64,000 nucleotides of DNA from an uncultured Thermodesulfobacteriota bacterium (GTDB lineage Bacteria; Desulfobacterota; WTBG01; CAIYCZ01; CAIRTM01): the NCBI GenBank assembly GCA_964621615.1, contig CAZUMW010000003.1:19914-83913 (forward strand), read 5' to 3'. A program made the position numbers and the translations under genes. The notes under the pieces were generated by a model that saw nothing but the letters and a program-made list of their open reading frames with translations, was not told where the DNA came from and did not search any database. How positions within the stretch are numbered: the first letter of the stretch is position 1; each line of letters begins with the position of its first letter. This document shows positions 20,281 to 54,315 of this stretch, piece by piece.

Positions 20281-20303
20281 ATAGGTGAATAGCGGATCAT
20301 TAA

Positions 20304-20367
20304 ATTATTTTGGACACCAGTGACGTATGGTATATCATAATTGAGGTTCACTGGTGTCCAAAATAAT
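20304..20367. repeat. Perfect 20-bp inverted repeat with 24-nt spacer
   Basis: ATTATTTTGGACACCAGTGA (20304-20323) / TCACTGGTGTCCAAAATAAT (20348-20367). Confidence 0.9.
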
Positions 20368-20373
20368 GTAACG

Positions 20374-20596
20374 AAGCCGGTTCGGGCGGGTCTCTGCGCA
20401 GCAGCCGCCATATGAAACCTCACTTCATGGACGGCCCGATACCGCTCACTGTACTTATGAACGGGCATTTTGCAGGGATTGTTGCAAACAGCAACTTCCT
20501 CCGGGCCGTGTATCTGCTGAAATGTAACGGTACATGCCGCTGCATAACCTCTTTACGTGTTGCGGGGGCTTTGCAGAGCCCCGTCCGAACCGGCTT
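20374..20596 (+). other. 223-nt multi-stem structured segment (candidate ncRNA or MITE relic)
   Basis: 17-bp closing stem plus nested stems; see findings. Confidence 0.45.
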
Positions 20597-20718
20597 TTGT
20601 TTAATGCTTTAATTTATTTTCGACACGTTTGATTGCGGTTATATAGTTAACAATTTCAATCCGTGGCGCGCGCTGTCTGACAGTTTTCAGCTGCACTGCC
20701 ACATACGGTTTCGGATTA

Positions 20719-51340: not shown

Positions 51341-52120
51341 TCACCGTGGAGCGGGGAAGCCGATCTGCCTCCTGACGTTTCGGTATTGTGCAGTAAAACC
51401 CAGATCCCTGTTTCGGATAGTCAGGGTTTCCTCTTGCTTTGCTTCAGCCGTTTTCCCTTTCACAAAGCTGAAAAGCGATATGAGCGAGGGCTTTCCCGCA
51501 CGGGGAACGACATGAATCTCTCGCTCACAGGAAAACCCTGTCGTTTCTGCTGCGTTGATAACCCGCTCTGTGTATTGATAGGGGTACACGGTTATGAAAT
51601 GCCCTTGTGGAACACACAGCCGGGATGCTGCATCAAAATAGTCATGAATCGACCCCTTGAGCTCAAAGCGCACCCTCGCCCGGTCAGTATGGGGGCTGAC
51701 CGGGCCTTCCTCCGGCTGATAATAGGGAGGGGATGAGGTGATGAATTCAAAAGAGCGCTTCAGGTGCAGGCGGCGCAGGTCTCCGTTTATCAGCAGAAAA
51801 CGGCTGTCAAGGGCGTTTGTGGCAAGCGAGCGGCGGGCAAGCCGTGACCGCTGATTTTGAATTTCGACCCCGATGCCGGCAAGCCCGGGAAATGACCACA
51901 TCACGATCATGGGAACGCTGCACAGGCCAGATCCCAGGTCAATAAACATGTCCGGAATTGAGCTCATCCGCCTAAGCGTGCGTACCGCCATCCAGCCGGC
52001 AAGCATGTCATCGGTAGTGTAGCGCTGGCCCTCCCGGGGCTGATATATGACATAGCCGCCCGACAGGGTATCACAGCGGATGTGCAGGTTTCTTTTTGTG
52101 CTTTTTGAGATTTTGTGCAT
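51341..52120 (-). CDS. tRNA1(Val) A37 N6-methylase-like (TrmN6/YfiC family) methyltransferase
   Basis: YQP..GQRYTTD, DLGSG, SPPYY (NPPY-like motif), RFEL. Confidence 0.75.
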   Translation of the reverse strand: MHKISKSTKRNLHIRCDTLSGGYVIYQPREGQRYTTDDMLAGWMAVRTLRRMSSIPDMFIDLGSGLCSVPMIVMWSFPGLAGIGVEIQNQRSRLARRSLATNALDSRFLLINGDLRRLHLKRSFEFITSSPPYYQPEEGPVSPHTDRARVRFELKGSIHDYFDAASRLCVPQGHFITVYPYQYTERVINAAETTGFSCEREIHVVPRAGKPSLISLFSFVKGKTAEAKQEETLTIRNRDLGFTAQYRNVRRQIGFPAPR

Positions 52121-52249
52121 TTTTCATATAGTAACGGAGAACGTGCTGTGTCAGCAACAGGAAAAATTTATTGTGTGCTGGATAGCGACTTTGCTCGGCG
52201 GATATTTTTTTTTGCTTTTTCCAGTGACTTTAAATAAAATCGTTTAATT

Positions 52250-52537
52250 ATGGATACCGTTGAAAAACTGTGTGATCTTCTTGTTGACGTTGAAGCTGCC
52301 TATCTTTTCGGCTCGTGCGCCTATGGCAGGGAAGATGAGTACAGCGATCTGGACATTATGATTGTTAGCGAAACAAACGAGGATTTTTTCCACCGGCATA
52401 AAGAGTTTCCACAATTGTATGAACTTGGCCGTCCCATCGATCTTTTCGTCTACACACCCGAAGAATTCAAACAAATGAAAGAAGCCAAAAACCCGTTTGT
52501 AATGAATATACTCAAAACAGGAATACGGATTAGATGA
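52250..52537 (+). CDS. Minimal nucleotidyltransferase (MNT)
   Basis: LFGS-X10-DLD, IDLFVYTPEEF; stop overlaps the HEPN start (ATGA). Confidence 0.92.
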   Translation: MDTVEKLCDLLVDVEAAYLFGSCAYGREDEYSDLDIMIVSETNEDFFHRHKEFPQLYELGRPIDLFVYTPEEFKQMKEAKNPFVMNILKTGIRIR

Positions 52538-53109
52538 AAAACAGTACGGAAGAATCACGGCGCTGGCTGGCGCAATCGCACAATGATCTTAAATTTGCAC
52601 AGCTGGCATATGCGGAAAAGTATTATTCACAGTGCTGTTTTATTGTCTCCTTCGGGGTTTAAAACCCTCGCCTTTAGGCGAAGAATGATTATTGGCTCAG
52701 AACGTGCTGTTCGTATAGGGTGCTTACCCTCAGGAGAATTTTTGTAGTTATGTGTTTTTCCTTTAGTCCCGACACGTCGGGAAAACTGAATCCACCGGCT
52801 TGTAGCCGGTGGTATTTCAATTCCCAGCAGTCGGCAGAGAAAGCAGTTAAGGCTGTGCACTACGGGAGCGGTGAACGGTTTGTAACCGGACACTCGATTT
52901 TTAAATTGCTCAGCACTCTCCAGCAAAAGGTTTCCGGTGATATAATTGAGAAAGCAAAAGTGCTTGATCAGTTTTATATCGCAGCCAGGTATCCAAACGG
53001 GTTGCCCGGAGGTGCTCCATATGAGGTGTTTACGCAGTCGCAGGCAAATGAGGCGCTGGAACATGCACAGCAGGTGTATGCCTGGGCACATAATGAGCTG
53101 AAAGGATAA
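52534..53109 (+). pseudogene. HEPN-domain gene interrupted by a 177-nt insertion
   Basis: 5' part MKNSTEESRRWLAQSHNDLKFA...YSQCCF joins 3' part ISQQSAEKAVKA...GHS...ARYP into a 132-aa HEPN once 52644-52820 is removed; in-frame TAA at 52660 inside the insert. Confidence 0.9.
52644..52820 (+). mobile_element. Miniature non-autonomous IS200/IS605-family element
   Basis: Inserted 3' of TTAT with no TSD; left end AAAA + hairpin TCGCC-TTTA-GGCGA; right end GAAT + CCACCGGCT-TGT-AGCCGGTGG + TATT-TCAA. Confidence 0.88.
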
Positions 53110-53145
53110 AAGATATGTGATTCACGTTTCCAAAAAGGGACATGC

Positions 53146-54315
53146 TCACAATATCTTATTTGCAATATAGCCCAGTATGAGAACCTGAGGAACTGCGGCA
53201 ATCGGCAGAAAGACAGCGGTTTTTTTGCCGACATTTGACCAGAGCAGCCCGATTTCGGTATAGTCGGTAACGACTCCGGCCATGAGGAATACAAAGCTGT
53301 TGCCGACGGCGCCGGTTTGTTTGAAGATTTCAAAAGCGATCGGCGCCGACCCTTCCGAGCACACCTCAATCACCGTGGCAAACGCAAGCGTTATAATAAG
53401 GCCCATCAGGGTCGGCCCCATGTAGTTCATGAAAAAATCGGATGGAATATATGCGCCGGCAAGAGCGGCCAGGCCCATGCCGATAAGAATCCACCACAGC
53501 ACCATGTTGCCCAGAGATACCGCCCCGCTCCAGATGCCGCTTAGATCCTTATGCAGTCGATCCATGGAAAAACAGTATCCCCGGTACCGCTGCTTTATGT
53601 CTGCGACGATAGAGAACTCTTTTCCCACCTGAACGCTGTTCGGGTTTTGTTCGATAACACCTGCTCGCTCCAGGATCTGGTAGATGAACCCGGTTATCAC
53701 GGCTATCAAAATTGCCGCGCCGATTATATAAAAGGCTTTCAGTCCGAAAAAGCCGATAAGCAGGATGGTAAGCGGCATGTTCGCCCAGGGGCTTGCAAGT
53801 AAAAAGGCCACAACTGCAGCATTTGCCGCTCCTTTTTTGTGAAGCTGGATAGAAAGGGCGAGAATACCGTGGGAGCATGTGCTCATTAAAAAGCCGGTCA
53901 CAACAGCATACGGTATTGTTCTTTTGAGCGGCCGGGCAAGAATGTGTGAAATATACTCGCGGGGAATAAAGTGATCGATCAGGCCGCCGATACCCAGCCC
54001 GAGCAGCACCGCCCACCAGAGTGTGGATACATACATCATCAGCCGAGACCGGAAGGGGGCAAGCAGCGGTATCGGATAGGATGCAAGCACAAGGATCAGC
54101 AGCGCGCCTGAAATAATAATGGTTTTATTTGTGTACCAATGCTTTTTGTGGTGCCCGGCCCGTGCATCGGCCAGCTGCTGCTCGGGAATGTAGTAGTCGC
54201 GGGCGAATTTTTCCATGCACCGGGGGTTGCAGAAATAATAATCAGTGCCGCTGTATGACAATCTGAGGCCGGTTTTTTCATCCACCTGCATGCCGCAGAC
54301 AGGATCCTGTGCCAT
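53146..54315 (-). CDS. YHS-domain + ArsP/DUF318-type predicted metal permease
   Basis: DPVCGM..YYFC..C (YHS); TCSHG, AFLLASP, EVCSEGS; start at MAQDPV after GGAGGG. Confidence 0.85.
   Translation of the reverse strand: MAQDPVCGMQVDEKTGLRLSYSGTDYYFCNPRCMEKFARDYYIPEQQLADARAGHHKKHWYTNKTIIISGALLILVLASYPIPLLAPFRSRLMMYVSTLWWAVLLGLGIGGLIDHFIPREYISHILARPLKRTIPYAVVTGFLMSTCSHGILALSIQLHKKGAANAAVVAFLLASPWANMPLTILLIGFFGLKAFYIIGAAILIAVITGFIYQILERAGVIEQNPNSVQVGKEFSIVADIKQRYRGYCFSMDRLHKDLSGIWSGAVSLGNMVLWWILIGMGLAALAGAYIPSDFFMNYMGPTLMGLIITLAFATVIEVCSEGSAPIAFEIFKQTGAVGNSFVFLMAGVVTDYTEIGLLWSNVGKKTAVFLPIAAVPQVLILGYIANKIL

Follow-up and report, generated by a model that had tools for sequence, protein, structure and literature searches.

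In a 64,000-nucleotide stretch of DNA from an uncultured Thermodesulfobacteriota bacterium (contig CAZUMW010000003.1; hereafter the window, to which all plain coordinates refer), a gene for a HEPN-domain protein is split by a 177-nt insert, directly downstream of an intact gene for a minimal nucleotidyltransferase (MNT). I consider it highly probable that this insert is a gene-less element of the IS200 group of insertion sequences (IS), that it inserted 3' of the tetranucleotide TTAT within the HEPN gene, and that it is excisable in principle and a stable knockout as assembled. The exact sequence of the HEPN gene before the insertion is recovered, and the state of the locus, with the toxin-like gene broken and the antitoxin-like gene next to it intact, is explained as a clean hit by a mobile element. 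The host genome in which the copies, transposases and junctions described below were searched comprises 4.9 Mb in 105 contigs and is 96.94% complete.

The stop codon of the MNT gene and the start codon of the HEPN gene overlap (ATGA), and the insert of 59 codons' length follows the second base of an ATT codon, the junctions reading TGC TGT TTT AT / TGTCTCC...TATTTCAA / T TCC CAG CAG. The first in-frame stop after the insertion is a TAA at 52660, 17 nt inside the element. When 52644-52820 is removed in silico, a HEPN frame of 132 aa results, of which residues 1-131 align with the intact 131-aa homologue P0003 over 131 columns without a gap (61.8% identity, E 5.9e-64), as against an alignment of 190 columns at 42% identity with the insert still present; no boundaries other than those of the 177 nt restore the frame. 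The two pieces of the gene also adjoin in the PF05168 profile, the 5' piece (52534-52641, E 0.056 on its own, a short piece) matching positions 2-29 and the 3' piece (52822-53106) positions 31-114 of 117. The N-termini of the homologues P0003 and P0004 match the 5' piece, and across the junction both proteins read ..YSQCCFISQQAAEKAVKAVHY... Altogether 134 HEPN homologues were found at E <= 1e-5, and the R-x4-H motif is kept in all eight intact homologues displayed (P0003-P0008, P0011 and P0024); R-x4-6-H is the mark of catalytic HEPN RNases. A preliminary description of this stretch, made from the sequence, had claimed that removal of the insert gives an intact 132-aa HEPN protein and that the MNT gene is intact. 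Its coordinates prove exact, and PF01909 and PF18765 span the 95-aa MNT frame over its full length. For the putative toxin-antitoxin module of which it spoke, the locus offers the MNT-HEPN layout and the general nucleotidyltransferase fold (NTP_transf_2); the NCBIfam model of the MntA antitoxin (NF047752) scores 38.7 bits with the MNT protein, under its cut-off of 60, and the HEPN protein matches none of the NCBIfam models, its domain type being PF05168. The pair is thus a predicted toxin-antitoxin system and not a confirmed HepT/MntA.

The insert could provide an alternative start for the remainder of the HEPN gene. A frame that begins with an ATG at 52750, inside the element, continues through the HEPN 3' piece, with an AGGAGA about 13 nt upstream of the ATG, and the resulting 119-aa protein (P0001; 24 residues from the element and 95 C-terminal HEPN residues, including R-x4-H) is listed among the proteins of the host genome, so that the gene could be seen as remodelled rather than broken. 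This product lacks the first 36 HEPN residues, that is, PF05168 positions 2-29, the spacing between AGGAGA and ATG is long, and among the fetched homologues its N-terminus is shared by none except P0001 itself; I regard a remodelled gene as very unlikely. An assembly artefact has also been considered. Contigs of the sequencing runs X1 and X2, built independently, cross both borders between flank and element (51900-52667 and 52785-53400), and because each leads from a unique flank into the element, the insertion at this locus is no mis-assembly. The positions of all features are listed in Table 1.

Table 1. Features of the interrupted MNT-HEPN locus and of the inserted element, in window coordinates.
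Feature	Position	Strand	Basis
MNT gene (95 aa), intact	52250..52537	+	Open reading frame; PF01909 (5.9e-11) and PF18765 (4.9e-11), residues 4-94
HEPN gene, 5' piece: 36 codons and 2 bases of the split ATT codon	52534..52643	+	PF05168 positions 2-29
TTAT, target and left cleavage tetranucleotide, in the flank and outside the element	52640..52643	+	23/26 copies; empty paralogous sites
Non-autonomous IS200-group element, 177 nt, top strand = +	52644..52820	+	Copies, no target-site duplication, autonomous relatives
Long-range helix, 5' strand	52646..52656	+	Inverted repeat I3; pairs with 52727-52737
AAAA, predicted left guide (G_L), adjoining the CCCTCGCC arm on its 5' side	52661..52664	+	Covariation with flank; scheme of PMC5934647
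Left imperfect palindrome (IP_L), CCCTCGCC TTTA GGCGAAG	52665..52683	+	Consensus fold
Long-range helix, 3' strand	52727..52737	+	Inverted repeat I3; compensatory changes
Alternative reading frame P0001, 119 aa, ATG inside the element, into the HEPN 3' piece	52750..53109	+	Called protein of the host genome
Penultimate hairpin, TCCCGAC AC GTCGGGA	52767..52782	+	Compensated stem variation among copies
GAAT, right guide (G_R), 4 nt 5' of the IP_R foot	52788..52791	+	Same as IS608 G_R
Right palindrome (IP_R), 9 bp, CCACCGGCT TGT AGCCGGTGG	52792..52812	+	Inverted repeat I5, 100% complementary; compensatory changes in relatives
TCAA, right cleavage tetranucleotide, last bases of the element	52817..52820	+	Same as IS608 C_R
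HEPN gene, 3' piece: third base of the ATT codon, then 95 codons and stop	52821..53109	+	PF05168 (2.3e-17)
R-x4-H motif (RFVTGH)	52876..52893	+	Read from sequence

The insert belongs to a dispersed repeat. BLAST finds 26 full copies in the host genome, each 175-203 nt long, and at least 10 fragments or pieces at contig ends. The copies of 199-203 nt carry an extra hairpin of 22-26 nt in the loop of the left palindrome. The median identity among unique copies is 95.4%, and three sets of copies (with 3, 2 and 3 members) are identical at different loci, which therefore indicates recent movement of the family. The repeat has the features of a palindrome-associated transposable element (PATE) or miniature inverted-repeat transposable element (MITE): it is short and multicopy, keeps both ends, has no open reading frame of its own and brings stop codons into the frame of its host gene. 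An Rfam scan of 52000-53400, HEARO and IS605-related models included, gave a best score of 23.6 bits against a gathering score of 60, and therefore no known RNA family explains the element. One 175-nt copy, at C4:154572-154746 (L006:1501-1675), is identical to the copy at C11:34830 and splits a gene for an ADP-ribosylglycohydrolase on the opposite strand, PF03747 being matched on both halves (201 and 91 aa).

TTAT stands upstream of 23 of the 26 full copies, the remaining three being off by one or two bases, as well as 5' of 11 of 14 copies in relatives and 12 of 20 copies from other genomes, the other flanks in the latter set being covarying or one-off. Directly 3' of the element, TT is found in all 26 host-genome copies and in 43 of 47 copies across five genomes (52821-52822 in the window and the equivalent positions elsewhere). 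The extent of the element is settled by a second abundant repeat of the host genome, 9 of whose 17 listed copies are uninterrupted and read ..CATTAT TTTGGACACCAGTG, i.e. TTAT/TTTGGACACC. Five copies of the miniature lie inside this repeat between TTAT and TTTGG (three of the 17 listed and two with a differing repeat end), and such filled sites, ..CATTAT[TGTC...TCAA]TTTGGACACC.., differ from the empty ones by exactly the element. Because of this comparison of empty and filled sites, the element is exactly TGTC...TCAA, it made no target-site duplication (TSD), and the TT is part of the target; a duplication of TT, or a true end 2 nt further on, is excluded by the empty sites. A transposon of another class, such as a MITE with terminal inverted repeats (TIRs) and a 2-bp TT duplication, would draw on the TT seen on both sides if the element were redrawn as AT-TGTC...TCAA. 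As the empty sites read CATTATTTTGG and not CATTTGG, nothing has been duplicated; moreover, the HEPN frame is restored by the 177-nt boundaries only and there are no terminal inverted repeats, so that I give this reading, together with that of an artefact, a negligible probability.

The second repeat itself is about 270-290 bp long and occurs in the window at 20296-20640 (C3:40209-40553) and at about 70 other places in the genome. It has inverted ends, ..CCCGCCCGAACCGGCTT..ATTATTTTGGACAC(CAGTG), with a 10-mer core found 148 times in the genome, and may be a TIR-type MITE or something else. Five of the 26 miniature copies have gone into the TTAT/TTTGG site close to its tip, a hot spot. At C1:323280-323390 a cut-down miniature copy, consisting of the left 60-odd nt and the loop hairpin, abuts the TTTGGACACCAGTG end of this repeat, which suggests a deletion between the two.

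In IS608, the model element of the family, the transposase TnpA binds subterminal imperfect palindromes, and the rejoining of the donor neither adds nor removes bases (PMC3201880, PMC5934647); cleavage takes place 19 nt upstream of the left hairpin foot and 10 nt downstream of the right one (PMC3201880). Guides and cleavage sites of IS608 are AAAG (G_L) with TTAC (C_L) on the left and GAAT (G_R) with TCAA (C_R) on the right, and the pairs include A+16:T-3 and A+17:T-4 (PMC5934647). The ends of the miniature are organised alike. Its left end runs TTAT / 17 nt / AAAA / CCCTCGCC TTTA GGCGAAG, and its right end GAAT, a perfect 9-bp hairpin and then TATTTCAA; TCAA is the terminus in 25 of the 26 host-genome copies. 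For the structure, 42 copies from five genomes were aligned, in which hairpins are subterminal at both ends and show compensatory changes. The consensus fold pairs IP_L in 37-41 of 41-42 rows, with changes from CG to TA, as a stem of 5-6 bp with a bulge.

The guide rule was scored on the three Watson-Crick positions of the published scheme (G1:C2, G2:C1 and G4:C4; PMC5934647). All three are satisfied by AAAA/TTAT in 21 of the 26 host copies, and by GAAT/TCAA in 19 of the 26. Further evidence comes from 20 copies in 17 other genomes of the phylum. There, the guide AAAA goes with the flank TTAT in 12 copies and with CTAT or TCAT, with one odd base, in two, the guide AAAT with TTAA in all five copies that have it, and the guide AAAC with TTAG in the single copy of its kind, so that all three positions are satisfied in 18 of the 20 left ends, with two exceptions. 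In the sequences, position 4 of the guide (A, T or C) tracks the target (TTAT, TTAA or TTAG), a change for which a simple extension of the hairpin would not account. Right ends that vary also fit the rule: CAAG/TGAC in genome G024 (three of five by script) and in the tnpA-bearing IS200 of genome G006, and AAAC/TTAG in locus L122. In the script-made counts for the host genome and its relatives, the left boundary had been mis-set in 9 copies of relatives, whose rows were ignored, and L064 and L069 were dropped as they failed the pattern; the flanks of six of the nine (L062, L066, L067, L070, L071 and L072) were read directly, and L061 and L105 were left out of the right-end count.

The preliminary description had attributed the insert to the IS200/IS605 family on the strength of this one copy, and in this respect it has held up well. 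The values that it gave for IS608 (TTAC with AAAG, TCAA with GAAT) are those printed in PMC5934647. Its guess that a left guide AAAA predicts T-T-x-T is upheld by the covariation in 20 copies, GAAT and TCAA are found at the right end as it stated, and other copies do follow TTAT as it expected. Copies with TSDs were looked for in the empty and filled paralogous sites and none were seen, in agreement with the description. The family call is further borne out by the IS200-type TnpA relatives with the same ends that are treated below.

One structural feature is absent from the IS608 model. A long-range helix links the outermost left tip of the element with a segment before the right-end hairpins, and in the 42 aligned copies it shows compensatory changes from CG to AT (8 rows) and from TA to CG (8 rows). 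This helix could bring the ends together in single-stranded DNA, or it could be a feature of an RNA.

The family is not confined to the host genome. In a sample of 401 genomes from 255 genera of the phylum, of which two candidates per genome were scored so that the counts are lower bounds, the 41-nt left end was found in at least 32 genomes and at least 24 genera. In most genomes examined the family is present merely as gene-less miniatures, and 5 of the 20 fetched loci carry or begin a tnpA. The best example is L117, a complete element of about 538 bp with a 146-aa TnpA, the left end TTAA/TGTCCCTTTCGGGG..AAAT-CCCTCGCC.. and the right end GAAT-CCCTCGGCT TAT AGCCGAGGG-TTGTTCAA; L112, with a TnpA of 143 aa, and L122 are similar. 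The TnpA proteins of L117 and L112 reach 142.5 and 158.6 bits with NF033573 (transpos_IS200), for which the cut-off is 55. In addition, the right end of the miniature aligns with that of the tnpA-bearing IS200 of G006 with a local score of 22-25 (shuffles 12.5 +/- 2.1, 1 of 2000 reaching it). On this evidence, the 177-nt insert is an internal-deletion derivative, i.e. a gene-less PATE, of a compact lineage of IS200 elements that have tnpA as their only gene. Matches to the left end alone in miniature-bearing relatives were tried as candidates for transposase-bearing elements, and every one proved to be a miniature that had diverged or was cut by a contig end.

Several observations weigh against this reading of the element. 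First, the third base after the right hairpin is T in the HEPN copy and G in 22 of the 25 other full copies, so that the last 8 nt are TATTTCAA in the former and TAGTTCAA in the latter. Second, the foot of IP_L as folded lies 2-3 nt 3' of AAAA. Because the folded stem begins that much further on, the assignment of AAAA is weak when taken alone, and the register of the guide draws its support from the covariation and, by analogy, from the right end, and none from the fold. Third, in genome G004 CAAT is found with TCAA in five of seven scored copies, and one of the three pairs is broken. Fourth, the strict preference for TT 3' of the element lies outside the IS608 rule, where a preference for one base (+1) alone is documented; the base after the cut is given as TTAC/C for IS608 and TTGAT/G for ISDra2 (PMC5934647). 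Finally, no transposase with the miniature's ends was seen among the IS200-type matches inspected in five miniature-bearing relatives (the inspected copies of G004, G006, G011 and G024 had other left ends; 10 of 30 loci were looked at, mainly the higher-scoring ones and none from G005), and none was found in the assembly of the host, which at 96.94% completeness leaves its absence unproven.

PF01797 has 10 matches in the host genome, of which two belong to a second, unrelated element of IS200/IS605 type, here called ISx (contigs C28 and C48), and the rest are large proteins with Y1 and DnaA_C domains or fragments. ISx has the sole intact IS200-type TnpA of the assembly, which shares 27-31% identity with the cognate type. 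In a comparison of its ends with those of the miniature, the similarity is not significant (the score was equalled in 263 and 1514 of 2000 shuffles), and TTTG, ATTG, ATTA and CTTA stand 5' of its copies, for which reasons ISx has been rejected as the mobiliser. In Geobacillus stearothermophilus, several families whose ends are alike are excised by a single TnpA, which does not excise IS608 (PMC10055086), and because of this specificity cross-mobilisation by ISx is not to be assumed. These matches thus offer no source for the recent movement of the miniatures. The expectation in the preliminary description that a tnpA with matching ends would be found was thus borne out in other genomes (L117 and L112) and not in the host assembly. 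In a search limited to TnpB, the models PF07282 and PF01385 have 0 matches in the host genome, and because no TnpB is matched, an omega-RNA role would be without a partner there.

By the mechanism known for the family, the events at the locus could be pictured as follows. The element would have inserted as single-stranded DNA 3' of TTAT within the HEPN gene, which the in-frame stop 17 nt into the element knocks out. If a TnpA of the Y1 (HUH) type were available, its dimer would bind both subterminal hairpins, AAAA 5' of the left hairpin would pair with the flanking TTAT and GAAT 5' of the right hairpin with the terminal TCAA, and the top strand would be cut after TTAT and after TCAA, upon which the element would depart as a circle and the flanks would be resealed without a scar. 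With TTAT, both guides, both hairpins and TCAA all present, the HEPN copy should be excisable in principle. Because the assembly holds no matching transposase gene, the insertion is a stable knockout as assembled.

It was proposed in the preliminary description that the element is precisely excisable and could act as a reversible switch. In this view, a TnpA supplied in trans would excise it without a scar and re-arm the HEPN gene, and the population would vary between HEPN-off and HEPN-on. Every cis feature for excision is present, scarless excision that restores an interrupted reporter has been demonstrated for the family in Escherichia coli (PMC10055086), the identical copies at other loci speak for recent movement of the family in this lineage, and a metagenome protein, P0002, points to a near-identical allele with an uninterrupted junction. 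Against this, the assembly has no cognate tnpA, and it holds neither an empty HEPN site nor a junction between right and left ends (RE-LE) as expected of an excised circle. The joint 52643>52821 is likewise not found in the contigs of runs X1, X2, X4 and X5, though contigs drop rare variants and X4 does not extend across the junction. Even an empty allele would be indistinguishable from one that was never hit, and the copy in the unrelated ADP-ribosylglycohydrolase gene argues for untargeted mutagenesis; because this member of an identical pair splits such a gene, the element hits genes regardless of toxin-antitoxin function. A phase switch calls for ON and OFF alleles within one population and an enzyme that interconverts them; what is found is a sole empty allele implied by the foreign protein P0002.

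P0002 is 97% identical to the HEPN protein over its last 79 residues. Translated in a different frame, the in-silico empty junction matches the first 32 residues of P0002 (84% identity, E 6.7e-18), and from about 52866-52870 onward the protein is back in the HEPN frame, the conserved EKAVKA stretch being altered, so that this allele seems to lack the insert and to be frameshifted, i.e. broken as well. The frameshift is deduced from the protein alone, as its DNA could not be read, and a search of metagenome contigs with P0002 found no relative. In run X5, which contains a relative of about 93-97% identity, two contigs break off exactly at the borders of the element, the first at 52644 and the second at 52821, in contrast to the contigs of the probable source runs, which extend 24-36 nt into the element; these ends could reflect two alleles in the sample or merely the repeat.

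Taken together, a functional reversible switch is improbable, and still a little less probable is the bolder form of the idea, in which the PATE would be a natural TnpA-dependent phase switch and a transposase arriving on a plasmid or phage, or made by an IS copy missing from the assembly, would re-arm the HEPN gene in a fraction of the population. Of the proposal, excisability in principle has the cis features, the lack of a TSD and the family behind it; no excision product was seen in the assembly or in the run contigs, in which rare forms would not show. The reversible switch is not supported, given the missing tnpA and junctions, the hit in an unrelated gene and the apparent frameshift of P0002. 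The preliminary description had itself named the lack of a cognate tnpA and of empty sites, along with further lesions in HEPN relatives, as signs of simple inactivation, and since the findings point there I favour it: most likely, the insertion has simply knocked out the HEPN gene, an ordinary inactivation by a mobile element. As the MNT partner is intact, an insertion in the toxin-like partner was presumably tolerated by the cell, and because such an insertion would be survivable, finding one may need no special explanation.

Compared with IS608 from Helicobacter pylori, the miniature shares insertion 3' of a tetranucleotide without TSD, subterminal hairpins and 4-nt guides 5' of their feet; G_R and C_R are identical, and the positions of left guide/target pairing are the same. 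It differs in its target, TTAT (guide AAAA) instead of TTAC (AAAG), in its spacing, the left arm lying 21 nt from the cleavage site and the end of the element 8 nt beyond the right hairpin where IS608 has 19 and 10, in the lack of tnpA and tnpB and in the strong 3' TT, and the TnpA of its autonomous relatives is of the IS200 type. With the PATEs of Haloquadratum and G. stearothermophilus it has in common that it is short and gene-less, keeps both ends, is present in many copies and is presumably mobilised in trans (PMC10055086). Unlike these, it comes from an IS200 lineage with tnpA only, and so has neither omega-RNA nor a TnpB partner, and its family, with the conserved 41-nt left end, is spread over at least 24 of the 255 genera sampled in its phylum. 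With L117, L112 and L122 the miniature shares the left end TGTC[C/T]C..TTCGGGG..CCCTCGCC TTTA GGCGAAG, the layout of the right end (guide, 9-bp hairpin, T-GTT-cleavage site) and the guide rule, whereas those elements encode a TnpA of 143-146 aa in about 540-570 bp, use the guides and targets AAAT/TTAA or AAAC/TTAG, and, in the case of L117, have no counterpart of the internal ~90 nt of the miniature.

HepT is a DUF86-type HEPN protein that is neutralised by AMPylation. The pair studied here resembles the type VII HepT-MntA systems in that the MNT gene lies upstream of the HEPN gene and overlaps it, and in R-x4-H and the nucleotidyltransferase fold, but its HEPN protein is of the PF05168 type without an NCBIfam model and its MNT protein stays under the MntA cut-off. 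Toxicity and AMPylation are putative for this pair.

Gene-less PATEs of the IS200/IS605 family, their mobilisation in trans, scarless donor joints and the switching of lacZ from off to on by TnpA excision are already in print (PMC10055086), and there is no new mechanism in the present findings. What they add is an IS200 lineage that extends across a phylum mostly in the form of miniatures, a natural series of guides and targets, the strict TT and a covarying long-range helix. The series is a natural illustration of DNA-guided targeting, and covariation of guide and target is a behaviour that has been engineered in IS608 in the laboratory.

Some further elements with Y1 transposases were noted in the host genome. 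ISx lies at C28:1-520 and C48:29540-30030 and has an intact tnpA (127 bits to PF01797), a right end that is followed by TT, and hairpins of the form CCCCGC(C/T)GC TT GCGGCG.., the C48 copy being without its right end. It has miniatures of its own, i.e. deletion derivatives, at C13:17517-17651, at C24:63513-63647 and on C65 around 2915-2942. A decayed classical IS200 at C15:85090-85400 retains the left-end hairpin, the 5' untranslated region and the first 26-30 codons of tnpA before a stop (remnant of 26-30 aa at C15:85204-85293). Proteins of 330-350 aa that combine Y1_Tnp with a DnaA C-terminal helix-turn-helix are encoded at C1:37052-38104 (L034:1390-2442) and at least four other loci (C55, C13, C36 and C1:233957); they are common in relatives too, and no link to the miniature was seen.

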